Shown piece by piece: positions 24,474 through 39,159 of a stretch of 64,000 nt of DNA. The notes beneath the pieces were generated by a model that worked only from the letters and a program-made list of their open reading frames with translations, ran no database searches and was not told the DNA's origin. The translations under genes were made by a program, and so were the position numbers. This DNA comes from an uncultured bacterium (GTDB lineage Bacteria > Zixibacteria > MSB-5A5 > UBA10806), in contig CBEUCH010000006.1 in assembly GCA_965541585.1 (NCBI GenBank), positions 64,001 to 128,000 on the forward strand, read 5' to 3'. Every line of letters starts with the position of its first letter. The first letter of the stretch is position 1.

Positions 24474-24502
24474 CTCACTATTTTCTCCAGCAGGTCAGGT
24501 AA

Positions 24503-24934
24503 TTACCAGATCCAATTTAGATTCATTCTCCTGAGATATCGGGCCGTGATGTAAGCAATTATGCAATTCATAAATACAAAAAATATCAACAAGTAATGAA
24601 AGTGATAAAAGGGTCTTCCCAGGAGAAAGGAAACCTCACATAAATCTATTATGGCGGCCGACAAGCGGAAGATGATCGATAGCTGAATAGCCACCAGGTA
24701 TTTTTCAGGATTCTTAAAACCGAGAAATTGGAAGTAAGCCGCAAAAAGCCAGTACATACCCACGCCTCTTATAAAAAGGGGTTCTGGACGAGGAATAAAA
24801 TTGACGACCTGCTGGAAATGACCTGCGAAAACAACGGCATAAACTCCTATCCCCAAATCCCATAAAGCCAACAGAAGCAAGATTAGACGGAGCCGTTTTC
24901 GAGCAATATCCTTTTCTTCCATTTTACCCTCCAT
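24503..24934 (-). CDS. Hypothetical four-helix membrane protein
   Basis: Four hydrophobic segments; tight spacing to neighbours. Confidence 0.7.
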   Translation of the reverse strand: MEGKMEEKDIARKRLRLILLLLALWDLGIGVYAVVFAGHFQQVVNFIPRPEPLFIRGVGMYWLFAAYFQFLGFKNPEKYLVAIQLSIIFRLSAAIIDLCEVSFLLGRPFYHFHYLLIFFVFMNCIIAYITARYLRRMNLNWIW

Positions 24935-24949
24935 ATTTCGAATTCCATC

Positions 24950-26488
24950 TTATAGATAATCATACTTGAAAACAAGGCGTTTGAGCGGCGCCAGGATCTT
25001 CCTCAGGATGTATATGGGCAGAGCCTTTTTCTTGAAAGAGAAATACTTGTCCATAGCCGTAAGGCCCGAGAACCACCAGTCGCTGAATGCGTACGCTTCC
25101 TCTATGATATCCAGAGACTTGATGATAAGCTCGCTGACGTTTTGCCACGGCTCATATACCGATTTGTCTCCGACCCACGTAATCTCGGGCTTTCCAAATG
25201 CTTCCACAGCAAGAGGGAGAAAACGTCCCACTTTGGGATCGTCGGGGTCGAGACCCATCTTTTTGGCCCCCACCCAATCCACCGCCATCAGGTTTTCGCC
25301 CCCGATCATAGTCTTTGTATGAACAGGCGTGGGGTCGACTATTACGCCGAACTGTCCATCGGCGCTGTAGATGCCGTCAATAAGGCCGAAATGTACTGGA
25401 AAATGTTTCAAGCTCTCTATGGTGGGCCAATCGTATTCCCTCTTCGAGTGATATTCCTTCAATTTATTCTGCATGGGAAGAGTACCGTAGATGTTTTTTA
25501 AAGTAAGCGTGTAGTGGCAGAATACATGCGTTTTGTTTTTTGCGAAGGATAATCTGAAATCAGCATCCCTCCAGGTAGGCCCTACAAAGTGTTTTCCAAA
25601 CCTGCCACCATAGTCGTAGGGGACCATCTCCTCGGTAAGATCGATAATCCTATAATTCTTGTCAGTAGAATATCCAAGATATTCGGCTACCTTAACAACC
25701 TCTCTGTTGTTATAGTAATTTCCCAGTGTACTCTGGGCCTCAACAATTGTAATATTGGGATATCCCCTCTCCGCAATCTTATCGATAAGGGCTTCCACAA
25801 GCTTCGGATCGGTATAAGTGGAGATATCCTTTTTATGGTGGCTATACATAAAATTGGGTTTGATTACGACCGAAAAGCTCTCTTTGGTTTTCCTTGTCTT
25901 TGTAAACCGTTTCTCCAGAATCTCAAAAAAACCCGTCTCTCCCAACACTCTATTCAGAAGGTCGAACTTATCCTCGCCTTTTAACGCCACCACAGAAGTG
26001 GGCCCCGTATTCTTGGGAGCAACAGGTTTCTTCCTGAGATACGATGTATGGGCTATAAAAAATGCTTTGTTTGCCCTTAGATAAAAGAAGAGAGTTAACC
26101 AGAAGATGGAACCGTCAACTATGAGTATAATCAGATAGGCAAGGTATTTAACCGAGAAAACGAAAAAACAGAGTGCCGATATGGCGGACGCAGACTTCGA
26201 AATTAGCAGCGGTATAATGTATCCCTTGTTTTTTCTTACGTTGTGCTGGGCGATAAGAGATAAAACTGCAATAGTCATCATCATGGAAAACGTCATAGAT
26301 AGCCAGAACTTCTCTGTTGAGGGAGGAATATCGTCAAGACCGAGCGTTAAGGCGTGAGATAGCTTATTAGTTAAATCAAGAATAAGCTCAGGCATAACGG
26401 CAAAGGCAATCCCCACCAAAAAATAAGTTATCGCACTTATAAACATAAATACTTTCAATTGTTTTTCTTCCCGTGTCATGTTTGTCAT
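24950..26488 (-). CDS. DUF362 domain protein with N-terminal membrane domain
   Basis: VVIKPN, TDP.LVEAL, K.KTH, TLKN.YG, D.VGAK.MG DUF362 motifs; four TM helices at the N-terminus. Confidence 0.85.
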   Translation of the reverse strand: MTNMTREEKQLKVFMFISAITYFLVGIAFAVMPELILDLTNKLSHALTLGLDDIPPSTEKFWLSMTFSMMMTIAVLSLIAQHNVRKNKGYIIPLLISKSASAISALCFFVFSVKYLAYLIILIVDGSIFWLTLFFYLRANKAFFIAHTSYLRKKPVAPKNTGPTSVVALKGEDKFDLLNRVLGETGFFEILEKRFTKTRKTKESFSVVIKPNFMYSHHKKDISTYTDPKLVEALIDKIAERGYPNITIVEAQSTLGNYYNNREVVKVAEYLGYSTDKNYRIIDLTEEMVPYDYGGRFGKHFVGPTWRDADFRLSFAKNKTHVFCHYTLTLKNIYGTLPMQNKLKEYHSKREYDWPTIESLKHFPVHFGLIDGIYSADGQFGVIVDPTPVHTKTMIGGENLMAVDWVGAKKMGLDPDDPKVGRFLPLAVEAFGKPEITWVGDKSVYEPWQNVSELIIKSLDIIEEAYAFSDWWFSGLTAMDKYFSFKKKALPIYILRKILAPLKRLVFKYDYL

Positions 26489-26506
26489 GATTCGCCCTCC
26501 CGAATA

Positions 26507-27247
26507 TTAAAAGGTATCCTTATCTAATGGTTCATTGGCAAGATAAGCCGACAATGAATATATGCCGAGTATCTCCAGCGGCCAGCATCCGAAGAGGAGA
26601 AAGATGGGCGGATAATTCGGATTAAAGGTGAATGTCCACACGCCACTGGCGGCGGAGCCCATATATTCACTGGGATTGCCGACAATCCATGATGTAATTA
26701 CAATACCGATAAAAACGGAAAAGCCCATTTTGACTGACGCGTAAATGCATGTAACAAAAAGTGCAGCATAAAACAGATAGAACAAAGGCCCCGCTCCATC
26801 CCGGTACTTCCCGAGTAATAATAGAATTAACAGGAATAAAATTGCCAGAATAATCTGATTTAACCACCTCGGCGGCGACGGCTTCAATTTCTTTATCTGT
26901 CTTATCACTATCCTGGTAGAAAGGGTATAAGCTGTTAATCCGCCGAGGACCCATGCCCAGACGCCAAAATTGTATCGACCGTCAATCCCATGATACGACC
27001 ACAGCCCGGACCTTATACCTATAGTCTCCTTGACATATTCAATTACGAAGATTGTGAAAATGAGCGAAAGCAGACGCTTAGTCGAGATATGCAGGGCAAG
27101 CCATACCGTTATTGAAAAACCTGCGAGAAGCGAAAGCAAGAAGGGAATTGAGATTAGAGGAATATATCCCTCATGAAATGCCGTGAATGCAGTAATAACG
27201 ACGAGCCATGCGACAATAACGAGGTTTTGCTGTTTTTCCTTATCCAT
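26507..27247 (-). CDS. Hypothetical polytopic membrane protein
   Basis: About eight hydrophobic segments; internal repeat E..G...G.W.(Y/F). Confidence 0.7.
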   Translation of the reverse strand: MDKEKQQNLVIVAWLVVITAFTAFHEGYIPLISIPFLLSLLAGFSITVWLALHISTKRLLSLIFTIFVIEYVKETIGIRSGLWSYHGIDGRYNFGVWAWVLGGLTAYTLSTRIVIRQIKKLKPSPPRWLNQIILAILFLLILLLLGKYRDGAGPLFYLFYAALFVTCIYASVKMGFSVFIGIVITSWIVGNPSEYMGSAASGVWTFTFNPNYPPIFLLFGCWPLEILGIYSLSAYLANEPLDKDTF

Positions 27248-27464
27248 TTGTTTAGCCCTGATCCTTACTGTAAAAAGTATTTATGAGAAAATTATGGCGC
27301 CTTCCTGCGGTTCTTAATTTTCGAAACTTCTATTATCTCCATAAATTCACGTGCTCCTTGAATGCTTCCCGCTATTTTCTCAAGCTCTTTATTCATCTGG
27401 ATTATTTACGAAATTATAGATGGATTATAAAACAATCCCTTTCGGCCAGCCTAACAAAGGCCGG

Positions 27465-27539
27465 TATTTCTAAAACATTCCCGGGGGGATGGGAAAACTT
27501 ATTCTTTAACAAGAGCCTATCGTCCAGTTTTGTCAAGGA
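27465..27539. repeat. 75-bp direct repeat, copy 1 (copy 2 at 30789-30863)
   Basis: 69/75 nt identical by manual alignment; first 36 nt identical. Confidence 0.9.
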
Positions 27540-27772
27540 TTTTTCTATTCGAATCTTAACCCAAATCCCTCATCCGTCCAAATTCATCTGACGTCAAACA
27601 CTCAGACCCCCTCCGAACGATGTAGCACAGTTCGCTTTATAACAGCGCAAGTTTGCGGAGGTGCTCTCCCAAATACTCAGTCATCTTGTGACCCTTTGTT
27701 TTTGTCGCTCGATTGTTGTTGAAATACATCTATAATTCGGGTAGCTTGATTCTAACTGAGGGACATCCATTC

Positions 27773-29965
27773 TTATGATCCTCCAAAGCTGTCATTAGCC
27801 TCGGAACCACCTGCAATTCCAGCTGTATTCTGATGCCAGATTTGGTCGCTAGTTGAGTTCAATCCCGAAGGCGTGCCGTAAATGACATTGACCGCTCCGG
27901 CTCCGGCAATCGCTCCTATACTCTCGTTTCTTACACCGATGGCCAGGTCAGCGCGTCCGTTACCGTTAAAGTCTCCAGAAGTCAGAGACGAGCTAAATTG
28001 ATCATCAGCCTCGGCACCACCGTTAATTCCAGCTGTATTCTGATGCCAGATTTGATCGCTGGTTGCAGTCAATCCTGAGGACGAGCCGTAGATAACGTTG
28101 ACCGCTCCGGCTCCGAGAATAGAGCCGATACTCTCAATCGGTTCGCCGATTGCCAGGTCGGTGCGCCTATCGCCATTGAAGTCACCTGCGGCCAGAGCAG
28201 ATCCGAAGCTGTCGTTGGCCTCGGCTCCACCTTTGATTCCCGCGGTGTTTTGATGCCAGATTTGATCGCCGGTTGCAGTTAATCCCGAGGAGGAGCCGCA
28301 GAGAATGTTCACTGCTCCAGCTCCGGCAATCGTCCCGATACTCTCATTCCTTACACCAATAGCCAGGTCGGCGCGTCCATCGCCATTGAAGTCACCTGCT
28401 GCCAGAGCGGATCCGAAGCTGTCATTGGTTTCGGAGCCACCTTTGATTCCCGCGGTGTTTTGATGCCATATTTGATCGCCGGTTGCAGTCAATCCCGAGG
28501 AGGAGCCGCAGAGAATGTTCACTGCTCCAGCTCCGGCAATCGTCCCGATACTCTCATTCCTTACACCAATAGCCAGGTCGGCGCGTCCATCGCCGTTGAA
28601 GTCACCTGCAGCCAGAGCGGATCCGAAGTTGTCATTGGTTTCGGAGCCACCTTTGATTCCCGAGGTGTTTTGATGCCATATTTGATCGCCGGTTGCAGTC
28701 AATCCCGAGGACGAACCGTAGATGATGTTCACTGCTCCAGCTCCGGCAATAGTTCCTATGCTTTCATTCATTACCGCAATAGCCAGATCGTCACGCCCAT
28801 CGCCATTGAAGTCACCTGCGGCCAGAGCGGATCCGAAGTTGTCATTGGTTTCGGAGCCACCTTTGATTCCCGCGGTGTTTTGATGCCAGATTTGATCGCC
28901 GGTTGCAGTCAATCCCGAGGACGAACCGTAGATGATGTTCACTGCTCCAGCTCCGGCAATAGTTCCTATGCTTTCATTCATTACCGCAATAGCCAGATCG
29001 TCACGCCCATCGCCATTGAAGTCACCTGCGGCCAGAGCGGATCCGAAGTTGTCATTGGTTTCGGAGCCACCTTTGATTCCCGCGGTGTTTTGATGCCAGA
29101 TTTGATCGCCGGTTGAAGTCAATCCCGAGGACGAACCGTAAATGACATTCACTGCTCCTGCTCCAAGAATAGCTCCGATACTTTCATTTCCCACACCAAT
29201 AGCCAGATCGTCACGCCCGTCGCCGTTAAAGTCACCCGTTACTTTACCAGTGAAATTAGAATACAGATAACAAGTGGCATTCCTATCATCCACTTCGAGA
29301 GTTCTGAATGCGATGCTGCCCGCCGCACTTGCTGAAGTCATTGTTGGAAGAGGGGCAGAAGTTAACTCAGTATGGTGAAAACCGATCATGTGCCCGATTT
29401 CATGTGTCGCCGTTTGCTGAATATCACGGACGACTCCGGCGTTTCCTACCGTCCATACGAAGTCGCGGCCATTAAAAGCAACATCCACATCGAGCAATGT
29501 CTGGTTATTTCGTATAGTTATAATTGTTACCGCCAGGACTCCAGCATTTAATATCGGCGCCAGGCCTCCAAATTCAGGCGCGCCGGCTTCTGCCCAGTAT
29601 GTAACGTTGTTTAGATCGGCAGCGTTTCTGGTGGCGGCAGTACCTCCTCCGTAGACAAAAATCAAGTTTGCGCACGATACATTTTGCCAAGCGTTGTATG
29701 CTGCTGTAACCGCATTTTGAGTTTGGTTAAACGTCAACGCATCACCAGCACCGTTGTTATTTACCTGATAACCAACCGTCCGCTCTATCCAACGAACTGT
29801 CACGCCTGAGCCCGGGGGTACAGCTGCTCCGGCCGTATATGTTCCTACTCCCCCGGTTTGTTGAATCAGCCGGTATGCGTAGGCGTTATTACCAACCAAA
29901 AGCAACAAGAACCCGAGAACAAAAGGTGCACAGATCTTTACAATGATTGTGATTCGAATTTTCAT
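27773..29965 (-). CDS. Secreted matrixin-like (metzincin) metalloprotease with seven FG-GAP repeats
   Basis: Signal peptide; HEIGHMIGFHH plus PTM Met-turn; seven GDFNG(D/N)..DLAI...GAGAV repeats. Confidence 0.9.
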   Translation of the reverse strand: MKIRITIIVKICAPFVLGFLLLLVGNNAYAYRLIQQTGGVGTYTAGAAVPPGSGVTVRWIERTVGYQVNNNGAGDALTFNQTQNAVTAAYNAWQNVSCANLIFVYGGGTAATRNAADLNNVTYWAEAGAPEFGGLAPILNAGVLAVTIITIRNNQTLLDVDVAFNGRDFVWTVGNAGVVRDIQQTATHEIGHMIGFHHTELTSAPLPTMTSASAAGSIAFRTLEVDDRNATCYLYSNFTGKVTGDFNGDGRDDLAIGVGNESIGAILGAGAVNVIYGSSSGLTSTGDQIWHQNTAGIKGGSETNDNFGSALAAGDFNGDGRDDLAIAVMNESIGTIAGAGAVNIIYGSSSGLTATGDQIWHQNTAGIKGGSETNDNFGSALAAGDFNGDGRDDLAIAVMNESIGTIAGAGAVNIIYGSSSGLTATGDQIWHQNTSGIKGGSETNDNFGSALAAGDFNGDGRADLAIGVRNESIGTIAGAGAVNILCGSSSGLTATGDQIWHQNTAGIKGGSETNDSFGSALAAGDFNGDGRADLAIGVRNESIGTIAGAGAVNILCGSSSGLTATGDQIWHQNTAGIKGGAEANDSFGSALAAGDFNGDRRTDLAIGEPIESIGSILGAGAVNVIYGSSSGLTATSDQIWHQNTAGINGGAEADDQFSSSLTSGDFNGNGRADLAIGVRNESIGAIAGAGAVNVIYGTPSGLNSTSDQIWHQNTAGIAGGSEANDSFGGS
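27776..29236. repeat. Intragenic tandem array of seven 210-bp FG-GAP units
   Basis: GDFNG codons recur every 210 nt; 28681-28890 and 28891-29100 are identical. Confidence 0.95.
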
Positions 29966-30585
29966 TTTCCCTCCTCCCTTAACTGCTTCTTTTGTATTTC
30001 CCTAACTCTGTCGAAGAATTCGTCTAAGGGTAAACCTTCCTTCCCGCCGGGTGGCAAATCTTCGAGATTCACCTCTGGCTTGAGAAAGAACTTCAAGGCA
30101 TGACTTATAGCTATCATTTTGTTTGTAGTGGAATCCAGCCTGACGTCGAATTTGCCTTGAGACAAAGCGACTATATTGAAGGGTTCTTCATCAGCTTGAA
30201 TAGTCACTTCATGTTGTGAAGCATCCACTCTCTGAAGCATAAGTACCGTCTCTTCATCGATGCTGATCTCTGGTGTACCGATGACAATCATTGATTTGTC
30301 GCCTACAGCCCCACCAGGTAGATAAATGGATATCTCCTCCTTCGTAAAACTGCCCTTCAGAGTGTCCTGCACCTGGAATACGGCCTTAGTATAAATTGCT
30401 GTCCCTTCCCTATTCCAGAAGCTCTCGATCTTAACAAACTTCCCCTTTACTACATGCGAGCTCGAACTAGTTAGCTCTTCAAGCGATAGTCGCACAAATT
30501 CAGTGGCTGTTGCTGTGGTTAGGAATCCCATAAGAAAGATAATCAGCAACATGGTTCGTTGTAGTGTTACATTTTGCTTTTTCAT
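29962..30585 (-). CDS. Secreted hypothetical protein (matrixin-associated, propeptide/chaperone-like)
   Basis: Signal peptide from ATG 30585 (GAGG RBS); LEEL...S.HVVKG...IYT...LKG...LPGG; ATGA overlap with the protease gene. Confidence 0.7.
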   Translation of the reverse strand: MKKQNVTLQRTMLLIIFLMGFLTTATATEFVRLSLEELTSSSSHVVKGKFVKIESFWNREGTAIYTKAVFQVQDTLKGSFTKEEISIYLPGGAVGDKSMIVIGTPEISIDEETVLMLQRVDASQHEVTIQADEEPFNIVALSQGKFDVRLDSTTNKMIAISHALKFFLKPEVNLEDLPPGGKEGLPLDEFFDRVREIQKKQLREEGK

Positions 30586-30788
30586 AATTCTCTCCTCTCT
30601 TTTTCTATTAAGAGAAAACAAAGGCCTAATATCCTCAAAACAATAAATTTGGTACCTTGAATTCTTTAATGGTTGGACCGGACTGCTCCCCATCTTTGGG
30701 CCGGTTTGAATGAAGATTTGCGATGAGATCGTTATGAATCTTTTAAAGTTCACCTGTACCTCCTCATAGCAAACCCAATGATGGGCGA

Positions 30789-30863
30789 TATTTCTAAAAC
30801 ATTCCCGGGGGGATGGGAAAACTTGTTTTTCAAAAAGAGCCTATTGTCCAGTATTGTCAAGGA
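30789..30863. repeat. 75-bp direct repeat, copy 2
   Basis: Matches 27465-27539. Confidence 0.9.
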
Positions 30864-31070
30864 CTTTTTTGCGGAATTTCAGTTACTGTCGCTTTAACCG
30901 CATACTCATCCCCCATTGGTCAGCCTCAAAAAGGTCAGACATGATGAATGGAGGGTTTGCGGAAACAAATAGGTCTCTGCGGAAAATTATCAATCAGGCC
31001 CTGATTGGTACGGAGGGTATTGATGGTGAACACAACAAAAAAATCCGACTTTCGTCAGGCTTGAAATCAA

Positions 31071-31113
31071 TGGCGGGGCCGAATCCCGCTTTTAGGGGGA
31101 GAACTTTCGACCT
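31071..31113 (-). pseudogene. Degenerate tRNA-Asp 3' fragment with palindrome insertion and CCA end
   Basis: Minus strand GAGGTCGAAAGTTC-[TCCCCCTAAAAGCGGGA]-TTCGGCCCCGCCA versus intact GAGGTCGAGAGTTC-GAGTCTC-TTCGGCCCCG. Confidence 0.75.
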
Positions 31114-31130
31114 CAAAAGCCTAAAAAAAG

Positions 31131-31205
31131 CGGGGCCGAAGAGACTCGAACTCTCGACCTCCTGCGTGACAGGCAGGCGTTCTAACCAAACTGAACTACG
31201 ACCCC
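31131..31205 (-). tRNA. tRNA-Asp(GTC)
   Basis: Cloverleaf: acceptor GGGGTCG/CGGCCCC, anticodon arm CCTGC-CTGTCAC-GCAGG, T-loop TTCGAGT; CCA not encoded. Confidence 0.97.
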
Positions 31206-31215
31206 GTAAATTATT

Positions 31216-31479
31216 CTATTTTAAACGATCAACTTTTCTATCTATTAATCCCTTTATCCTATCTTTATTCTTCCATTTTTTTAACTTTTTTTCTCGGACC
31301 GTTGCTTCGGATCGACTCCCGAACTCTTCAACATATACTATTTCCCACGGTCTACAATATCTCGTCGATTTTGAACGTCCCTCATTATGCCGTCTGATTC
31401 GATCCTCAAGATCAGCCGTTGTACCGACGTAAAACCGTTCATTAATCTTACTCTTTAGAATATAAAGGTAACAAGCCAA
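31216..31479 (-). CDS. GIY-YIG nuclease family protein, copy 1 (87 aa, TTG start)
   Basis: YLYILKS....FYVGTT.DL..R..RHN.G.SKST...RPW..VY.E......A..RE..LK. Confidence 0.92.
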   Translation of the reverse strand: MACYLYILKSKINERFYVGTTADLEDRIRRHNEGRSKSTRYCRPWEIVYVEEFGSRSEATVREKKLKKWKNKDRIKGLIDRKVDRLK

Positions 31480-31574
31480 TTTACCTTTGTTATCCTCCTC
31501 AATAACTCGCGACCTTCCCGACCTTTTAGGTCGGGACGTTCTAACCAAACTGAACTACGACCCCGTAAATTATT

Positions 31575-31838
31575 CTATTTTAAACGATCAACTTTTCTAT
31601 CTATTAATCCCTTTATCCTATCTTTATTCTTCCATTTTTTTAACTTTTTTTCTCGGACCGTTGCTTCGGATCGACTCCCGAACTCTTCAACATATACTAT
31701 TTCCCACGGTCTACAATATCTCGTCGATTTTGAACGTCCCTCATTATGCCGTCTGATTCGATCCTCAAGATCAGCCGTTGTACCGACGTAAAACCGTTCA
31801 TTAATCTTACTCTTTAGAATATAAAGGTAACAAGCCAA
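31575..31838 (-). CDS. GIY-YIG nuclease family protein, copy 2
   Basis: Identical to copy 1. Confidence 0.92.
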   Translation of the reverse strand: MACYLYILKSKINERFYVGTTADLEDRIRRHNEGRSKSTRYCRPWEIVYVEEFGSRSEATVREKKLKKWKNKDRIKGLIDRKVDRLK

Positions 31839-31950
31839 TTTACCTTTGTTATCCTCCTCAATAACTCGCGACCTTCCCGACCTTTTAGGTCGGGACGTTC
31901 TAACCAAACTGAACTACGACCCCGTAAAAAAATCTATTCTGTTTTCAATC

Positions 31951-32025
31951 TGGGCAGTGCTGGATTCGAACCAGCGACCTTCTGCGTGTAAAGCAGACGT
32001 TCTAACCAAGCTGAACTAACTGCCC
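31951..32025 (-). tRNA. tRNA-Val(TAC)
   Basis: Acceptor GGGCAGT/ACTGCCC, anticodon arm TCTGC-TTTACAC-GCAGA, T-arm GCTGG-TTCGAAT-CCAGC. Confidence 0.97.
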
Positions 32026-32031
32026 GGCTTA

Positions 32032-32292
32032 TCAACCCTTTTTATCGGCGGCTACAGCGCCGCCTGAAGGCGATTCCTTTTCCTTTTTCCGCCCGGGCAG
32101 GAGTATCCCCAGGGGAATAGCGACGCAGTACCCCAGAACCAGCAGGATGGGAGCGATGGTGATATCGCCGACTCCCAGGAAGATGAAACCGACAATAATA
32201 AGAAACAAGCCGACCCCCAGGACGATATAGTTCGTCCTGCCAAAATCGATTCCCACTCTGGCGGAGCTTCTAGTTTTCGCCGATTGTGCCAT
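32032..32292 (-). CDS. DUF3098-like small membrane protein
   Basis: FGRTNY...G...II.GF...ITIAPILLVLGY pattern, two TM helices. Confidence 0.75.
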   Translation of the reverse strand: MAQSAKTRSSARVGIDFGRTNYIVLGVGLFLIIVGFIFLGVGDITIAPILLVLGYCVAIPLGILLPGRKKEKESPSGGAVAADKKG

Positions 32293-32438
32293 CTATCCCT
32301 TATACTCCCGGGTGATAAAACCGAACCACTCTCGGCCGGTTTCCTGTTATTATCCCCGGCCTGGAAACAAATTAAATTAAATCAAAATCCTTCAAAGTCA
32401 AGAACAATCTACGGAAGCGAATATTCGTCCGTCTAACC

Positions 32439-33827
32439 CTAATATGCGTTTGGGCTTCTGAGAATGCCCCTGATAGTTAAGAGAATTATCTTTATATCGA
32501 ATACCAATGACCAATTCTCGACATAATAGAGGTCATATTTTGTCCTCTCGGTAACCGATGTATCCCCGCGGAAGCCATTGACCTGGGCCCAGCCGGTCAC
32601 TCCGGATTTAACCTTGTGCCTTTGAAAATACCGGGGGATATCGTCTTTGAACTTCTCGACGTATCCCGGCTGCTCGGGCCTCGGCCCTACCAACGACATC
32701 TGCCCGACGAATACGTTGAAAAGTTGCGGTAACTCATCGAGGCTGAACTTGCGTATGAATCTCCCCACCCGTGTGCGGCGGGGATCGTCCTTGACGGTCC
32801 ACCCTGTGTCGTTGGCATTGTTCTGGTTGTGAGCCATGGAGCGGAATTTCAGCATGTTGAATTCCAGCCCGTTGCGGCCGACCCGCCGTTGTTTGAAGAG
32901 AATCGGCCCTCTGGAATCGAGTTTTACCGCTATTCCGATAGCAGCCATCAGCGGAGAAAAAAGAACGATCGCCAGGCCCGAAAAGGCGAAATCAAACAAC
33001 CGCTTTACCAGACGCGCATAACCCTCGATAGGCGTTCGTCCCCAGCGCACAACCGGAATCCCCTCTATCTGGCCCGCCTCAGAGTTAAACGTCATGATGC
33101 CCATGACATCGGGCGAGGTCATATATTCGGTTTTCAGATTATCGCTTTTCATCACGAACTCTGCAATGAAATCGCGATTATCGGAAGGAAGGTTAAATAC
33201 GATTAAATCGATCGGCTGCGATCTTACGATCTCCTCTAACTCGTCGATCCTCCCCAGACAGGGAAACTGTATTTCCTGGTCGCAGACGAACCCGATGGGC
33301 TTAATACCCCAGGCCGGTTGAGCTCTAAGTTTTTCAAATAACAAGAATCCATTTCTATCGTTGCCGACGAATACCGCCCTTTTTGTGCCGAGACCACGTC
33401 GAAGCAAGGCAAGCTCGAAACGATAAACGATTTCTCTCTGCAGGTATATAATTACCATCCCCAGGATCCAGCCGAAACCCATAACCAGCCGAGAAAAGCT
33501 CTCGCCACGATAGAAAAAGGTGGTGGCGATTAATATTATGGCTCCCGAACTTACGCCCCGCATTGTCTCCCAGAAGCGATCGAAAGACGACGGGGGACGG
33601 CTTCGGTAATGTCCCATCAGACCGAAGATAAAAATCCAGACAATACTTACGAAAATGATCGCCTGTAGGTAGAGGCCAAGCTCCGGTGTACCTTTGGTAA
33701 TCGGAAAGACTCTGGTGGCCGCGGAATAAAACCTGATCTGGTAAGCAAGGTAAAAACTCACAAGGATACCCAGCATATCTCCGAGTATGAAGATTACCGG
33801 CAAGATATATCGAATCTTGGTACTCAA
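32439..33827 (-). CDS. wcaJ: Undecaprenyl-phosphate glucose phosphotransferase (WcaJ-like priming glycosyltransferase)
   Basis: KRLFD, KFRSM, DPRRTRVG, SLDELPQL, MSLVGPRPE, GVTGWAQVNG, DLYYVENWS. Confidence 0.92.
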   Translation of the reverse strand: MSTKIRYILPVIFILGDMLGILVSFYLAYQIRFYSAATRVFPITKGTPELGLYLQAIIFVSIVWIFIFGLMGHYRSRPPSSFDRFWETMRGVSSGAIILIATTFFYRGESFSRLVMGFGWILGMVIIYLQREIVYRFELALLRRGLGTKRAVFVGNDRNGFLLFEKLRAQPAWGIKPIGFVCDQEIQFPCLGRIDELEEIVRSQPIDLIVFNLPSDNRDFIAEFVMKSDNLKTEYMTSPDVMGIMTFNSEAGQIEGIPVVRWGRTPIEGYARLVKRLFDFAFSGLAIVLFSPLMAAIGIAVKLDSRGPILFKQRRVGRNGLEFNMLKFRSMAHNQNNANDTGWTVKDDPRRTRVGRFIRKFSLDELPQLFNVFVGQMSLVGPRPEQPGYVEKFKDDIPRYFQRHKVKSGVTGWAQVNGFRGDTSVTERTKYDLYYVENWSLVFDIKIILLTIRGILRSPNAY

Positions 33828-34993
33828 TTTACAAGGCGCTCCTCAAGCTTGACTTTTCCCTGCTTCCTGAAAAGACTTACGGCCTCATTCAACAATTCAT
33901 TCATCTGACAAAAAAAATTCTCTTTTGAGAATCTGGTAGCGTGTTTGCGAATCTCCTCGGAATCGAAGCTTAGATTTGAGAAAACTCTCAGTGCCTTCGT
34001 GACATCCTCGGCTGATTGGTTCCTGAAGAAAAGACCGGACTTAAATCCGTCGAACCGGTCAATTTCATCGACGAACGGCCCGATGACCGTATCTTTGATG
34101 CCTCCCTCGGCGTAGGCTATGACGGGCTTGCCGCAAGATTGAGCCTCCACTGGTATTATCCCGAAATCCTCGACGCCGGGAAAAATCAGCGCTCTGCAGC
34201 CGCGGTAGTAATCTCTTAATGTTTCCCTGTCGATCCACCCGGTGAACTCAACGTTCTTCGATGCCATGTTAGCCAGCCGAATCAATTCAGGACCGTCGCC
34301 TGTTACGATGAGTTTTTCCTCAAGCCCTTTGAAAGCTTCAATAACTATATCTCCTTTCTTATAAGGGACCATAGCCCCTGCAAGGAGAAAATAACCTCGC
34401 CGACCGGAAGGACCGGGAGTATAAAAATCCGTATCCACGGGCGGAAATATCACCTTCGACGGCCGTTGGTAATATTCCTTTATTCTCTTACGAACAAAAT
34501 TGGAATCCGCGATAAAAAGATCAACTCTGTGGGAACTATTTCTATCCCATGTGCGTAATCGCTTCGCCATATAAGAAATAAATCGATATTTGATAGGATT
34601 TATCCTGTCTTTCCTGAAATAATCATCAAACCTGTCCCAGACGTAGCGCATTGGAGAAAAACAGTAACAGATATGAAGCGTGTTCTCGCCGGTAACGGCT
34701 CCTTTGGCTACACAATGCGAACTCGAAATAACAAGATCCGTATCTTCGAAGTTAAACCTCTCGATTGCTTTTGGGAAAAAGGGAAGATAGTGCCGGTAGT
34801 GTTTTTTTCTCATGGGCAGGTTTTGAATGAATGATGTTCTAATTTCATGTTTTCTGATATCAGCCGCGATCGTCTCCGGATCATAAAAGAGTGTATAGAT
34901 TTTCGAGCGCGGGAAAATTGAGGCGATTGCCTGCAGAACCTTTTCTCCACCACGCATACCGTTGAGCCAATCATGAACCAGGGCTACTTTCAT
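33824..34993 (-). CDS. GT4 glycosyltransferase
   Basis: HDWL...RGGE, EDFGIIPVEAQSCG. Confidence 0.92.
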   Translation of the reverse strand: MKVALVHDWLNGMRGGEKVLQAIASIFPRSKIYTLFYDPETIAADIRKHEIRTSFIQNLPMRKKHYRHYLPFFPKAIERFNFEDTDLVISSSHCVAKGAVTGENTLHICYCFSPMRYVWDRFDDYFRKDRINPIKYRFISYMAKRLRTWDRNSSHRVDLFIADSNFVRKRIKEYYQRPSKVIFPPVDTDFYTPGPSGRRGYFLLAGAMVPYKKGDIVIEAFKGLEEKLIVTGDGPELIRLANMASKNVEFTGWIDRETLRDYYRGCRALIFPGVEDFGIIPVEAQSCGKPVIAYAEGGIKDTVIGPFVDEIDRFDGFKSGLFFRNQSAEDVTKALRVFSNLSFDSEEIRKHATRFSKENFFCQMNELLNEAVSLFRKQGKVKLEERLVN

Positions 34994-36078
34994 CTGCACG
35001 ATACCTCTTCGAAAATCTCAAAGACAGCGCGACCGACTCTATCCCAGTTGAAGATTCGAGCCCTCTCAAATCCGGACTTTTTTAACCTATCACGAGTTTG
35101 TTCATTTTGCCAGCATTCTTCAACTTTTGCCAGCATATCGGGAATATCTTCCGGGAAAAACATGAGGGCTGAATCACCCACGACTTCAGGCAAAGAGGCT
35201 CTATTGGAGCAGGCCACGGGAAGCCCGGAGGCCATGGCCTCCAGAGGAGGCAATCCGAATCCTTCGTAAAATGATGGGAATACAAACACCCGGGCGCTGT
35301 TATAAAGCAAGGCCAGCTCAAGATGGGTGTCAACTTCAACAATACTTAACATATTCTTATGATTAACAACAGGCATGATCTTGTTACGAAAGATCTTTAC
35401 ATCCCCGGAGGCAATGACAACGGGATATTTGAGCCTGTTAACAATCTCCGCCAATGCTAACGGGTTTTTATGCCGCTTTAAGGCCCCGGCGTAAAGAACG
35501 AACTCATCGGGCAGCGATCTTTCTCTTTTGAATTGCGAAACCCGGTCATGAGGATATGGTTTGAACAAGTCCGTATCAACCCCCGGGTTGATTTTCTGAA
35601 CCTTATCCGACCAGTCCGGGAAAAGCGCTTGAATATCTCGTTTCGAGTGATCGGAAACGGTGAGGACTGCCGAACATTTCTTCCCCGTGTGGTTGACGAT
35701 AGAGCGGGCGTATAGTCTTCCGGCAAATCCGAACCTGACCGGCAGGCGAAGATGTATGAGATCATGGATCGTAGCCACCGACGGGCAATGAAGGTTGAAT
35801 GGCAGGGTATAATGTGGGGTGAAGAACAGGTCGGCGTGAATTTGAGCAACAGGTTTTCTAAAGGAGAACAGTTCAGACAGGGAGTATCCGGGATAATCAT
35901 GATAGATTATCCGGGCGAAATCAGATGGAAAATTCAGAAGTTTTTCGTCACCGGGGCGGCAGAAGAGGACAAATTTCGCATCCACACTTAGCCTGTGCCA
36001 GCTTAGAAGAAGATTGCGCAGATAGGTTCCGATTCCACCATCTCTTATCTTGCGGCAATCAATTGCGACTTTTAGCAT
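34990..36078 (-). CDS. GT4 glycosyltransferase (mannosyltransferase-like)
   Basis: TIHDL, EGFGLPPLEAMASG. Confidence 0.92.
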   Translation of the reverse strand: MLKVAIDCRKIRDGGIGTYLRNLLLSWHRLSVDAKFVLFCRPGDEKLLNFPSDFARIIYHDYPGYSLSELFSFRKPVAQIHADLFFTPHYTLPFNLHCPSVATIHDLIHLRLPVRFGFAGRLYARSIVNHTGKKCSAVLTVSDHSKRDIQALFPDWSDKVQKINPGVDTDLFKPYPHDRVSQFKRERSLPDEFVLYAGALKRHKNPLALAEIVNRLKYPVVIASGDVKIFRNKIMPVVNHKNMLSIVEVDTHLELALLYNSARVFVFPSFYEGFGLPPLEAMASGLPVACSNRASLPEVVGDSALMFFPEDIPDMLAKVEECWQNEQTRDRLKKSGFERARIFNWDRVGRAVFEIFEEVSCR

Positions 36079-36081
36079 CGC

Positions 36082-37290
36082 TTAACGCTTTTTCCCGGCG
36101 TGATCCCCGCCGCAAATCTGTTTATAAACCTGCATAAATTCATCCGTGATCTTAGCGGCGCCGAATTCTTCAGCCGCCGCCAGGCAACCGTCAAACATCC
36201 GGCCCGACAGATCCCGGTCATTTACAAATTGCATTATCCTGCTCTCGAGGTCGCCGTCAATAGATGGATCGAATATCAAGCCCGTCTTATTATCATCGAT
36301 CATTTCCCGGGCCCCTCCCCTGCAGGTGGCGATTACCGGCAGGCCGTGCGAATAGGATTCTATCAGCACCCTCGGAAAAGCATCGTCGCACAGGGATGGA
36401 ATAATGACAACGTCGAGATCGTCATATATCTCATCGGGGTTTTTCAATCCCATAAATTCGATATTTTCACCCTTGTATCCGTCGACGAGATATTTCTCAT
36501 ACGAGGGCGTTATGCCCTGGCCGAAGATTTTTAGCCTGGCGTCGCCTGATCCCATCTTCGTAAATCTCTTAAGAAGATATTCTATACCTTTAATGGGGGC
36601 AAGCATTCCGACTAATCCGAAAGCGATACGGCTCCTTTCGCGAGTCGATCTGCCGGGTCTGGAATTCGAAAACGATGCGCTATAGATATGAGTCTTTATT
36701 TTTGAAGTTTTAAAATATCCGAAGTTCAGGTGTTTATCCAGTATGAACCTGCTGACGCCAACGGCCGCATCGACATAAGCGGACATTCTTTTTCTCGGTA
36801 TGGAATAAAATCTGCATCTCAAACATTGGCGTATGCATCTCCTATCCCGTCGGTACATGACAGAATTTGGACAGAGCAGGTAGTGATCCCTGATAGTGTG
36901 AACGATAGGCAACTCGAATTTCGCCGCCACCTTCCAGGCAAACACCGAAAAGCCGGCGAGATTGTTGGTGTGAAAAATGTCGGGCTTTTCCAATTCGATA
37001 ATCCTGGAGAGACGCCTGGCAACAAGCGGATTATACGAATCCAGAAGATGCCAGAACGGTTTCTTTATTGTTGGCTGGCTTTTCGCGGTGCGTGTCCAGT
37101 ACAGGTTTGAAATTTTAAGATAGTGAACATTGATTCCATCCAACCGGTCGACAGAGTCACGATCGGCCGTAGAAACGATTACCGGCTCCATTCCTTTGTC
37201 TCTTAAACCGGCCGCCAGGATCTCAACGGATCTTTCGGCTCCACCTATAGCGTGCGGGCGATACAATGAATTGAGGATTAAAACCTTCAT
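36082..37290 (-). CDS. GT4 glycosyltransferase
   Basis: GGAERS, KG motif, DAFPRVLIES..G.PVI. Confidence 0.9.
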   Translation of the reverse strand: MKVLILNSLYRPHAIGGAERSVEILAAGLRDKGMEPVIVSTADRDSVDRLDGINVHYLKISNLYWTRTAKSQPTIKKPFWHLLDSYNPLVARRLSRIIELEKPDIFHTNNLAGFSVFAWKVAAKFELPIVHTIRDHYLLCPNSVMYRRDRRCIRQCLRCRFYSIPRKRMSAYVDAAVGVSRFILDKHLNFGYFKTSKIKTHIYSASFSNSRPGRSTRERSRIAFGLVGMLAPIKGIEYLLKRFTKMGSGDARLKIFGQGITPSYEKYLVDGYKGENIEFMGLKNPDEIYDDLDVVIIPSLCDDAFPRVLIESYSHGLPVIATCRGGAREMIDDNKTGLIFDPSIDGDLESRIMQFVNDRDLSGRMFDGCLAAAEEFGAAKITDEFMQVYKQICGGDHAGKKR

Positions 37291-37974
37291 CTATCGTTTT
37301 CTCGAGGTTACCTTAACCATTTTAACATTCAACCTGCCCCAGTCCTGATCGAAAGAATCGACTATATTAATAAACTCCACGTCAAATGAAGTTCTGTCAA
37401 GAGCGTCGATTACATAGTTGCATCCAAATCGATCGGTAAGATTCGGGCAATCCACATAGTAATCGTCGAAAATGACAATGGTATTTTCCGAAAGCAAATT
37501 TCGGACATTTTCCCAATCGGAAGATATCGTCTCGATGGAATGTCCACCGTCCACGAATACCAGACCTATAGGCGAATAATCATCCTTTGTCGAGATAAAA
37601 TCAGGCAGGGTTTCCTCGGAGAAACCCCTGTATAAGAACACCCTGGCGCCGGTTTGTTCAATCTTATGACGGACGGCGCTCATCGTATCCGGCCTCTTGG
37701 AAAGCTGACTTTTAAATATCTCGTCATTCATCTCCTCGAACAGGTCAAAGCCAAAATATGTTATATCTCTCGGTTGATTATAAACGCCGGCAGTTCTTAT
37801 CATCTCCACCGCCCGCCGGCCTGTATAGACACCTATTTCCAATATGGTCTTGATCCTGTTTTTATATACGATATCGAGCAATGTCCGATATCGTCTGGTC
37901 GAGGATAAGGGATAAATCACCTTCGCCCGGGCAATATAATTCATATAATTCATAAATTTGTTTGATTGCATCAA
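37291..37974 (-). CDS. Class I SAM-dependent methyltransferase (Methyltransf_24-like) in the polysaccharide locus
   Basis: LEIGVYTG, GFDLF, FVDGGH, IFDDY. Confidence 0.85.
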   Translation of the reverse strand: MMQSNKFMNYMNYIARAKVIYPLSSTRRYRTLLDIVYKNRIKTILEIGVYTGRRAVEMIRTAGVYNQPRDITYFGFDLFEEMNDEIFKSQLSKRPDTMSAVRHKIEQTGARVFLYRGFSEETLPDFISTKDDYSPIGLVFVDGGHSIETISSDWENVRNLLSENTIVIFDDYYVDCPNLTDRFGCNYVIDALDRTSFDVEFINIVDSFDQDWGRLNVKMVKVTSRKR

Positions 37975-38013
37975 TCGCTCCGCCTGACAGGCTACCTCAT
38001 CTCGTAATTCGAT

Positions 38014-39159
38014 CTAATCGATCGGGCCGTACGTCAATCTTGCGCATCTATCCCAGCTAAAACCGAGTGCGTGATTGCGGGCTTCGCTTCCCAGCGCAGC
38101 CTTATAATCCCGGTCCGTCAGGATTTTTGTTAACGCGGCCGCCAGGGCGTCGGCGTCTTCCGGCTTAATCAAAACTCCGGTTTTTTCATGAATGACAACC
38201 TCCGCTACTCCTCCGATCCGGCTGGCTATGCATGGCAATCCCGCCGCCGCGGCTTCCAGATAGGCAAGGCCATATCCCTCCACCTTTTCCGGATAGGACT
38301 CGCCGGGCATGCAAAATACAGTCGAGCCGGCATAAAGAGACGGCAGATCCTCGTGTTTAACCCTGCCGATAAATCTCAGATCGATAGCTGAAGTCTCCCC
38401 CAGCCGTTTCAACCCACCGGCATATGCCCCATCTCCAGCGGCCCCGGTGATAATATAGGTAGTTTTTGATTTAAGTTCAGGTTTCAATTTCGATATGGCT
38501 TTGATTACGGTCAAGTGACCCTTTCGCTCGTCAAGCCGCGAGACAGTCAGGACGACATGATTGTCCGCAGGAATCGAATAGAGTCGGCGGATGTCAAATT
38601 CGCGTTGTGACCCGGAAAACCTCTCGAAATCTACGCCGGGAGGCGTTACGGTAACGTCTTCAACTCTTATTTCTCTGTATTTGTCAAGCAGAAGGTTTTT
38701 CGTAAATTCGCTGATAGCGAATATGCTGCTCGGGATTTTGAACATATTATCGACACCAAGAAACCTCATCTGCTTTGAATTGTGAGCCAGGAGTATTTCC
38801 GTGCCGTACACGGTCGCCACAAACCGGATTTCTTTAAACCTGTTGAGAAATGCCAGGGCCATAATATGAGGCCAGTCCACGGCATGGATTAGATCATACA
38901 TCGACAGATCTGCCCTACGGTATGTCCTCCATACAAGCCCGGGCAGCCTTCTATAAGAGTAGTCGCCCGCACCGAATCGAATGACCTTGAAAGGATATCT
39001 TCTTTTATCGTCTTCTGAGTGATCGCGGGGTGAACCGGGAGCCAGGACAGTGATCCGGTGACCAATTTTAGACGCGGCTGCAGCGAGATTGGCAGCATAG
39101 GTTGCGATCCCCCCAGTAACAGGCGGAAATTCATACGTTAGTATCAGGATCTTCTTCAT
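38014..39159 (-). CDS. GT4 glycosyltransferase
   Basis: EFPP..GG, RL..RKG, EGYGLAYLEA. Confidence 0.92.
   Translation of the reverse strand: MKKILILTYEFPPVTGGIATYAANLAAAASKIGHRITVLAPGSPRDHSEDDKRRYPFKVIRFGAGDYSYRRLPGLVWRTYRRADLSMYDLIHAVDWPHIMALAFLNRFKEIRFVATVYGTEILLAHNSKQMRFLGVDNMFKIPSSIFAISEFTKNLLLDKYREIRVEDVTVTPPGVDFERFSGSQREFDIRRLYSIPADNHVVLTVSRLDERKGHLTVIKAISKLKPELKSKTTYIITGAAGDGAYAGGLKRLGETSAIDLRFIGRVKHEDLPSLYAGSTVFCMPGESYPEKVEGYGLAYLEAAAAGLPCIASRIGGVAEVVIHEKTGVLIKPEDADALAAALTKILTDRDYKAALGSEARNHALGFSWDRCARLTYGPID

Follow-up and report, generated by a model that had tools for sequence, protein, structure and literature searches.

How does the gene for a small nuclease come to stand in tandem between two transfer RNA (tRNA) genes, each copy framed by pieces of one of them? 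The question is raised by positions 31178-31928 of the window analysed here, a 64,000-nucleotide stretch of contig CBEUCH010000006.1 from an uncultured bacterium of the Zixibacteria. On the minus strand, two identical 359-bp units separate a tRNA-Val gene from a tRNA-Asp gene; each unit joins the 5' half of tRNA-Asp, and a palindrome lying in place of its anticodon arm, to an open reading frame (ORF) for an 87-aa GIY-YIG protein. The explanation preferred here, to which a probability of about 0.6 is assigned, is that the locus is a two-copy tandem array of a selfish, integrase-free mini-cassette of 359 bp, which recombines through its tRNA-derived arms by way of Ssn-like hairpin nicking and host recombination.

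Tandem Repeats Finder reports a single array of period 359 across 31178-31928, with 2.1 copies, 100% matches and 0% indels. The only tRNAs detected in the region by ARAGORN and Rfam are both on the minus strand, namely tRNA-Val(TAC), the first of the pair, at 31951-32025 (Rfam, 73.4 bits) and tRNA-Asp(GTC) at 31130-31205 (68.4 bits), and no other RNA family is found there by Rfam at E-values up to 1. Reading along this strand, tRNA-Val is followed by the native Val-Asp spacer of 27 nt (31924-31950), the two units and the intact tRNA-Asp. Each unit begins with TTTAC and GGGGTCGTAGTTCAGTTTGGTTAGAACG, the latter being positions 1-28 of tRNA-Asp (28/28 identity by blastn-short of the tRNA against the genome). 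There follows the 21-nt palindrome TCCCGACCTAAAAGGTCGGGA, of the form TCCCGACCT-AAA-AGGTCGGGA, which occupies the slot of tRNA positions 27-43 and replaces exactly the 17-nt anticodon arm CCTGC-CTGTCAC-GCAGG. The tRNA register then restarts with the 12 nt AGGTCGCGAGTT, corresponding to the variable loop and T-stem (positions 44-55), and the homology stops in the T-loop. A leader with GAGGAGG and AAGG upstream of a TTG start, the 87-codon ORF and AATAATTTAC complete the unit. In unit 1 the left arm lies at 31896-31928, the hairpin at 31875-31895, the right arm at 31863-31874 and the ORF with its stop codon, delimited by Pfam and a conserved start, at 31575-31838; the corresponding parts of unit 2 are at 31537-31569, 31516-31536, 31504-31515 and 31216-31479, the two ORFs being 100% identical. 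The 33-bp segment made of TTTAC and the tRNA-Asp 5' half flanks each unit as three identical direct repeats, the third of which leads into the intact tRNA-Asp (31130-31210 with the repeat). A preliminary description of this DNA, made from its letters alone, had set out the same architecture, and the identical units, the exact exchange of anticodon arm for palindrome at both positions, the bracketing 33-bp segments and the intact tRNA-Asp after the last unit are all confirmed.

The unit ends in a diverged copy of the Val-Asp spacer (..AAAATAGAATAATTTAC, compared with ..AAACAGAATAGATTTTTTTAC in the native spacer), as do its counterparts in two same-family genomes (G011 and G008); in unit 1 this copy, at 31565-31574 plus the ORF end, includes the final codons and stop of the gene. 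The presence of the spacer copy means that, relative to an empty site, the insert is one block at the junction of positions 26 and 27, ordered as hairpin, positions 44-55, ORF, spacer copy and positions 1-26. No gene other than the GIY-YIG ORF is contained in the unit, which lacks a tyrosine or serine recombinase, and among the 11 neighbouring ORFs that are 110 aa or longer (22290-39159) Pfam detected no recombinase or transposase domain. This bears out the earlier view of a minimal integrase-free cassette tied to tRNA genes. The rolling-circle-like duplication suggested alongside it fares worse, no Rep/HUH-type gene being present among the 11 neighbouring ORFs scanned. As ARAGORN finds only one tRNA-Asp gene in the whole genome (98% complete, 40 contigs), the array sits on an essential single-copy tRNA gene, which has been kept intact. 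A sigma-70-like sequence, TAGAAA-16-TAGAAT, with 9/12 matches, closes each unit (31213-31240 and 31572-31599, minus strand), its second hexamer falling in the spacer copy 7 nt ahead of the next tRNA 5' end. It might, on this weak resemblance, be a promoter for the downstream unit or for tRNA-Asp; the scan returned 5 such sites where 2.2 are expected in shuffled sequence, and it is not used as evidence.

The ORF product, as first proposed, belongs with the GIY-YIG proteins: it matches Pfam PF01541 with an E-value of 1.7e-19 and 70.3 bits, relative to a cut-off of 22.6, over residues 2-71 of 86. This one domain spans the whole length, and neither Pfam nor the AlphaFold model of the protein reveals a second or DNA-binding domain. 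Among 29 sequences no variation is seen at Y5, Y16, G18, R26 or H30, and conservation of E62 is 90% or more; Y5, Y16, R26, H30 and E62 presumably correspond to the catalytic core of I-TevI. The model (predicted local distance difference test score, pLDDT, of 90.4) has the element order E-E-H-H-E-H-H, a three-stranded sheet with flanking helices as in the GIY-YIG superfamily, and its best Foldseek matches are the UPF0213 protein BH0048 (1ZG2), Slx1 (4XLG, 6SEH), EF2693 (1YWL) and I-TevI (1LN0). The predicted fold thus places the protein in the superfamily, in Slx1/UPF0213-like form, and it is a predicted nuclease. The ratio of non-synonymous to synonymous change (pN/pS) is 0.18-0.27 in all six pairs of four Zixibacteria orthologues, between which synonymous sites are near saturation; because it is low in every pair, the gene appears to be maintained by purifying selection. 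The TTG start recurs in the orthologues, and in G011 an in-frame TAG two codons upstream fixes the ORF as a short one. A group I intron is ruled out, as there is no Rfam intron match, and the match to NCBIfam 'grpIintron_endo' scores 24.5 bits relative to a cut-off of 56 and covers only the 34-residue GIY-YIG motif.

Folded as single-stranded DNA (ssDNA), the palindrome reaches -14 kcal/mol (z = -3.1), and one of 200 shuffled sequences folds as well. A search for small GIY-YIG genes beside tRNA fragments with TCCCG..CGGGA hairpins, advised in the preliminary description, proved productive: the core TCCCGAC..GTCGGGA occurs in 21 distinct instances beside related nuclease genes, in association with tRNA-Asp in Zixibacteria, tRNA-Val, tRNA-Arg and tRNA-Pro in Bacteroidota, and tRNA-Lys in Patescibacteria. 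In our reading of the flanks, 17 of these 21 hairpins lie between tRNA positions 26 and 44. Stem pairs 1, 7, 8 and 9 vary and are complementary in every instance, stems are 7-9 bp long and the loop is not conserved. Hairpin type follows the clade of the nuclease, not the identity of the tRNA, other nuclease clades being accompanied by TCCG..CGGA-type hairpins or long GC stems in the anticodon loop, T-loop or D-loop. Within the source genome, the hairpin is found in the two cassette copies and nowhere else. This pattern supports the hairpin being a conserved partner of the nuclease; by analogy with the Ssn nucleases, it is probably the ssDNA site of the enzyme. A functional tRNA with a long anticodon stem was also considered for these structures, and is ruled out by the variable loops and the stems of 7-9 bp; the loop TGAAA of some Bacteroidota units resembles a Phe anticodon loop.

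The level of variation at the Val-Asp spacer was compared in seven informative same-family relatives, of which three are empty and four occupied. In the empty ones (G007, G010 and G003), tRNA-Val and tRNA-Asp are separated by ~22 nt, and the empty-site alleles for which the preliminary description had called are therefore present. A single cassette is present in G011, where the hairpin is TCCCGACT-GGA-AGTCGGGA; G008 combines one cassette and an ORF-less unit, the hairpin being TCCCGACC-TTCG-GGTCGGGA; and G002, of the same genus as the source genome, shows a pair of 80-bp units that lack the ORF and whose hairpin is of another, degenerate kind. Three same-genus metagenome records (L138, L134 and L143) were retrieved with a pattern describing the hairpin in its context. 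L138, 86% identical to the window, holds one ORF unit (89% protein identity) followed by 74-bp ORF-less units, and together with L134 accounts for one ORF unit and at least three 74-bp units. In L134, which is 95% identical to G002 over 1265 nt, ORF-less units lead into an intact tRNA-Asp and carry the TCCCGACC hairpin at the place of the other hairpin of G002. The 74-80-bp units are otherwise conserved between the two, with (T/C)CCCGACCTTCGGTCGGGA in L134 and CCCCCTGCCACATAGTGCCGGGAG in G002 (L010), so the difference reads as an in-place swap of the hairpin between near-conspecific genomes. In L143, 91% identical to the window, the ORF unit is preceded by a chimeric unit (positions 1178-1283) composed of the tRNA-Asp 5' half, the hairpin, positions 44-76 of tRNA-Val and the Val-Asp spacer once more, the unit being called a tRNA-Phe by ARAGORN. 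Its composition is that of a snapshot of recombination between the right arm of a cassette and another tRNA species. The chimera, the swap and the arrays together imply that the arms recombine with tRNA genes, including those of other species, and that the array is remodelled among close relatives. The cassette is present, absent or rearranged in close relatives, and one intact tRNA is kept always.

Remains of other cassettes lie on the opposite side of tRNA-Asp. Directly after the intact gene, at 31072-31113 on the minus strand of the window, is what looks like the remnant of a cassette of a second type. It is a tRNA-Asp pseudo-half, from the 3' side of the gene, consisting of AGGTCGAAAGTTC, the imperfect hairpin TCCCCCTAAAAGCGGGA, which stands in for the T-loop and 3' T-stem strand, and TTCGGCCCCGCC. 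In G002 (L105) this module recurs in the flank of a GIY-YIG gene of 55% identity. In G003, where the Val-Asp spacer is empty, a GIY-YIG frame with two in-frame TAG codons begins 22 nt past tRNA-Asp (L116, G003:C41:78426-78659) and is followed by a hairpin-bearing pseudo 3' half, making this a decayed cassette.

Beyond the family, the association with tRNA genes was studied in a search of genome contigs from which the best 80 of 310 relatives were kept, a sample biased towards closer relatives, the compared loci having been selected by similarity. A tRNA lies within 150 nt of the ORF in 23 of the 80 loci and within 400 nt in 26; within 500 nt, one is found at 24 of the 31 best matches as opposed to 2 of the 49 others. 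At 12 of the 25 tRNA-bearing loci examined, incomplete copies of the local tRNA break off at positions 27-30, and one or both anticodon-arm boundaries are visible at 16 of the 25. All 32 tRNAs found near ORFs share the ORF strand; with the tRNAs within 400 nt so oriented, expression from the tRNA operon, as envisaged in the preliminary description, would fit the arrangement. In a sample of the phylum a homologue is present in 87 of 151 genomes (E <= 1e-8), with a co-oriented tRNA within 150 nt at 22 of the 29 best loci, and at least 10 of those 87 genomes have tandem ORF copies separated by less than 700 bp. Three tandem ORF copies are present in a single-contig genome (G110), three copies at tRNA-Pro on a 4.1-Mb contig (L033), and a further tandem array on a chromosome record (L045); at L033, L045, L026 and the locus described here, identical units are stacked straight onto an intact tRNA.

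The source genome has eight copies of the gene: the two in the window, others at tRNA-Gly, at tRNA-Asn and at the transfer-messenger RNA (tmRNA) gene, another where a contig ends, and a pair flanked by SRM-like repeats. Paralogues at C5:213874-214244, C6:210181-210718, C14:53171-53850 and C23:38100-38435 lie directly 3' of tRNA-Gly(TCC), tRNA-Asn and tmRNA, with pseudo-copies bearing the hairpins TCCGTACGGA, CCGCCGAAGGCGG and TCCGCCGAAGGCGGA; contigs C5, C6 and C23 end within cassette arrays, a tandem copy being cut by the end of C23. A tree of the ORF products, built from ~80 alignment columns and with a weak backbone in which 16 of 35 inner branches are unresolved, contains two well-supported clades that span phyla at one tRNA species each (Ser-TGA and Met), and places Arg and Pro loci within a Bacteroidota tRNA-Val clade. 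The SRM-flanked sequences form a separate clade (support 100/99) on a branch of length 1.24, and the SRM motif accompanies 10 of the 49 distant, mostly tRNA-free matches, compared with 1 of the 31 closest loci. Viral contigs yielded only two weak loci (34-42% identity), both at contig ends, and so gave no indication that phages carry the cassette. In the literature searched, with subscription-only papers lying outside that search, no account was found of bacterial cassettes that lodge a GIY-YIG gene within tRNA genes. Integrase-free nuclease-hairpin cassettes in tRNA genes are apparently a widespread and undescribed family, whose architecture, polymorphism, recombination products and co-variation of hairpin with nuclease are directly observed.

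A model for their behaviour is offered by SsnA of Neisseria meningitidis, which, according to the main text of Chenal et al. (2025; PMC11893778), binds its hairpin, NTS, as ssDNA only, cuts a few nucleotides upstream, requires both the sequence and the structure of the stem, and ignores double-stranded DNA (dsDNA) and RNA. On the preferred explanation, the cassette would persist and spread through host homologous recombination, its arms of highly conserved tRNA sequence allowing it to enter other genomes at the same tRNA gene and occasionally to switch tRNA species. Its gene would be transcribed together with the tRNA-Val/tRNA-Asp operon. By analogy with Ssn, the nuclease may bind the hairpin whenever heavy transcription, or replication, leaves the tRNA locus single-stranded, and may nick the DNA a few bases away from the hairpin, inside a tRNA-derived arm, giving recombinogenic ends perfectly homologous to the adjacent unit and to the intact tRNA. 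Such ends could drive gene conversion and unequal exchange, and nicking of this kind would account for the arrays, precise losses, hairpin swaps, chimeras and entry into the same tRNA elsewhere; binding and nicking of the hairpin, the choice of strand, the existence of circles and a route between cells are what we infer. The observed layout could have arisen by a single crossover between the 5' half carried on a unit-length circle and the resident tRNA, by a double crossover from a linear donor, or by unequal exchange between 33-bp repeats. The duplication would have come from recombination of the 33-bp direct repeats with one another, or from a unit-length circle entering a second time in Campbell fashion. 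Exact loss of the cassette would be the reciprocal event, in keeping with the clean empty sites. A hairpin once framed by tRNA arms could then be transplanted precisely by gene conversion. More tentative, and rated at rather less than an even chance, is the general proposal that integrase-free elements surf on tRNA genes, hairpin nicking and gene conversion overwriting anticodon arms, building arrays and swapping hairpins, and host recombination carrying the elements across genomes, tRNA species and phyla.

Two observations may be clues to movement between lineages. The ORF is 76.4% identical in nucleotide sequence to that of the distant genome DG_27 (L021), which has no alignable flanks and a tRNA-Val that matches at 60 of 76 positions; for the same-family genomes G011 and G008 the figures are 72-76% for the ORF, 70-75% for the flanks and 69-71 of 75-76 positions for tRNA-Val. 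Synonymous divergence is minimal for the pair with DG_27. A gene at least as close to that of a distant genome as to those of the same family would be a sign of horizontal movement. The second is the right arm, where the cassette has C50 (AGGTCGCGAGTT) and the resident tRNA-Asp has the A50:T64 allele (AGGTCGAGAGTT), giving GCGAG as opposed to GAGAG. The preliminary description noted this difference, which is real, and took it to hint at origin from another tRNA allele; C50 is indeed the resident tRNA-Asp allele of DG_27 and of three empty-site relatives.

Several points weigh against the preferred explanation. The C50 clue consists of one nucleotide, and the AGGTCGC patch of the neighbouring tRNA-Val would supply the same letter equally well, leaving the foreign allele as one of two sources. 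Within the family, cassette and flanks have diverged from G008 and G011 to about the same extent (72-76% and 70-75% identity, respectively), and vertical descent with losses, compatible with most of the data, would explain much there. The weak backbone of the tree limits what its phylum-crossing clades can say, and the copy number of two, which comes from the assembly, is unproven. Nicking, circles and transfer are likewise unproven, as is membership in Ssn proper (cd10448). The ORF product is 29-35% identical to the SRM-flanked paralogues of its own genome, which fall in their separate, long-branched clade, and the published SRM motif has no match at this locus (L001) and a match at one of the 31 closest loci. 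The invasion of empty sites is more than a nuclease restricted to hairpin-bearing DNA can explain unaided, and the model does not account for the first exact replacement of an anticodon arm by a hairpin.

One alternative is classical homing, in which the nuclease would cut the cassette-free tRNA-Asp, as dsDNA or as an ssDNA anticodon-arm hairpin, and repair of the break would copy the cassette in; the hairpin swap would destroy the target in the pseudo-copy, and renewed cutting of the restored tRNA would stack further units. Clean empty and occupied alleles at one conserved target (three and four of the seven relatives) are what homing would produce, as are identical units abutting the intact tRNA here and at L033, L045 and L026, and the C50 arm and divergent spacer copy have the appearance of donor-like flanks carried along with the cassette. 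There is also a precedent in the abstract of a report on phage T4 SegB, a GIY-YIG enzyme encoded within a cluster of tRNA genes (PMC2330249). Homing is nevertheless judged unlikely. An intact, presumably cleavable tRNA always remains beside the cassette, and the conserved, co-varying hairpin resembles a recognition site more than a mere disruption. Known homing GIY-YIG enzymes carry a DNA-binding domain, SegB being larger and including such a part, whereas the protein here is a bare 87-aa catalytic domain. Its nearest characterised small relatives, moreover, act on ssDNA hairpins only (main text of PMC11893778).

An alternative on a different level is that the array is an artefact of assembly, the genome holding one cassette, or some other number, around which the assembler circled. 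The two units are 100% identical, three other contigs of the genome (C5, C6 and C23) end inside similar arrays, and read coverage of the region is absent for the strain: no public run shared more than 0.23 of the words sampled from the locus, the runs being available as contigs only. Run contigs of 356 and 358 nt span one unit and represent related variants with 14-15 differences, and the joints seen in run contigs came from other organisms. A cassette-cassette junction in the assembly would nonetheless require reads containing it, and so at least two tandem units or a circle, and arrays in relatives are found in the single-contig genome with three copies (G110), on a 4.1-Mb contig (L033) and on a chromosome record (L045). 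An artefact therefore seems improbable.

Somewhat more doubtful still is a domesticated host gene, inherited vertically, whose product would be an ssDNA nuclease with a cellular role, such as the modulation of recombination or transformation, for which SsnA in Neisseria is the model; tRNA sites would have been used for their strong constitutive transcription, and the pseudo-tRNA pieces would be by-products of local duplication. Strong purifying selection, occupation of the same locus in several families of the phylum, similar divergence of cassette and flanks within the family and the homologue in 87 of 151 phylum genomes (E <= 1e-8) could all be read in this way. A settled host gene would not be expected to be patchy within one genus, to occur there as ORF-less units (G002) and as a pseudogene with two in-frame TAG codons (G003), or to be present in eight copies in one genome, mostly at different tRNA or tmRNA genes. 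Clades that cross phyla and keep their tRNA species, with Arg and Pro loci nested in the tRNA-Val clade, and a hairpin confined to the two cassette copies of its own genome also tell against it.

An RNA-level device, in which a tRNA-like leader cut by RNase P or RNase Z, or a tRNA mimic, would mature or regulate the nuclease mRNA, is very improbable, even though all ORF-proximal tRNAs are on the ORF strand and two relatives (L027 and L143) have near-full-length, hairpin-bearing tRNA-like copies that ARAGORN calls as tRNAs: no cloverleaf is possible for the unit because the 3' T-arm and acceptor strands are missing, neither Rfam (E up to 1) nor ARAGORN recognises a tRNA in it, the loop of the hairpin varies and SsnA binds no RNA (main text of PMC11893778). 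The tRNA mimicry of the preliminary description is not supported.

Two neighbouring genes are of separate note. An 86-aa membrane-like ORF immediately upstream of tRNA-Val (32032-32292, minus strand) has a weak DUF3098 match (24.5 bits, below the cut-off of 25) and is kept with the locus in family relatives. On the same strand, 27773-29965 encodes a protein of 730 aa that combines a Matrixin (M10 peptidase) domain with FG-GAP repeats and in which several ~70-aa repeat units are nearly identical to each other; this suggests recent internal duplication.

Small GIY-YIG proteins of the UPF0213/YhbQ/Ssn type are very common in bacteria, and one large branch of them behaves as the selfish partner of a tRNA-lodged hairpin, with a precise architecture (positions 26-44) and fast turnover. 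If the preferred explanation of a nicking, arm-recombining cassette is true, it would represent a new recombinase-free form of DNA mobility, and one that destabilises essential single-copy tRNA genes in a way so far unrecognised. It would explain many of the 'broken tRNA' fragments, and of the contig breaks at tRNA genes, in metagenome-assembled genomes, and the natural nuclease/hairpin pairs would form a catalogue for ssDNA tools.

Among known systems, the closest likeness is to Ssn. The protein here, at 87 aa, is a single-domain enzyme of about the size of Ssn proteins (~90-100 aa), its gene adjoins a short palindromic hairpin conserved in sequence and structure, hairpin type co-varies with nuclease clade, and the source genome has two SRM-flanked paralogues. 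The main text of Chenal et al. likens the NTS-ssnA-NTS layout to insertion sequences, and gives the small single-domain GIY-YIG proteins (UPF0213/YhbQ/Ssn) other than SsnA as having no established biological role (PMC11893778). By contrast with Ssn, the cassette hairpin is not dispersed in the genome, being restricted to the two cassette copies, and takes the place of the anticodon arm within incomplete copies of tRNA genes; that main text nowhere uses the word tRNA.

SegB and other free-standing GIY-YIG homing genes share with the cassette a nuclease gene among tRNA genes, preferential inheritance and the lack of an intron. The abstract on SegB (PMC2330249) has no mention of a hairpin, partial tRNA duplication or tandem arrays, and concerns a phage and not a chromosome. 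Occupied and empty alleles are found at the Val-Asp site as for SegB-type genes, and a separate DNA-binding domain is not. The UPF0213/YhbQ proteins (BH0048, 1ZG2; EF2693, 1YWL) and the Slx1 domain are the best matches in sequence and fold, with the catalytic core in common. The entries for BH0048 and EF2693 have no assigned function, and Slx1 is a structure-specific endonuclease, which acts with Slx4 and carries a RING/PHD domain.

REP/RAYT systems and the Y1 (HUH) enzymes of IS200/IS605, with which the Ssn paper itself draws a comparison (main text of PMC11893778), resemble the cassette in that small hairpins are handled as ssDNA by a dedicated small nuclease. The cassette differs from both in having no HUH enzyme. 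GIY-YIG enzymes are not known to form a covalent intermediate, and for this reason cut-and-paste by the cassette protein alone is unlikely. Finally, integrase islands and prophages, like the cassette, are lodged in a tRNA or tmRNA gene, a segment of which they bring along in duplicate, so that an intact gene is restored. They contrast with the cassette, which does without an integrase, measures 359 bp, is repeated in tandem, and duplicates the 5' half of the tRNA together with the short piece from positions 44-55.

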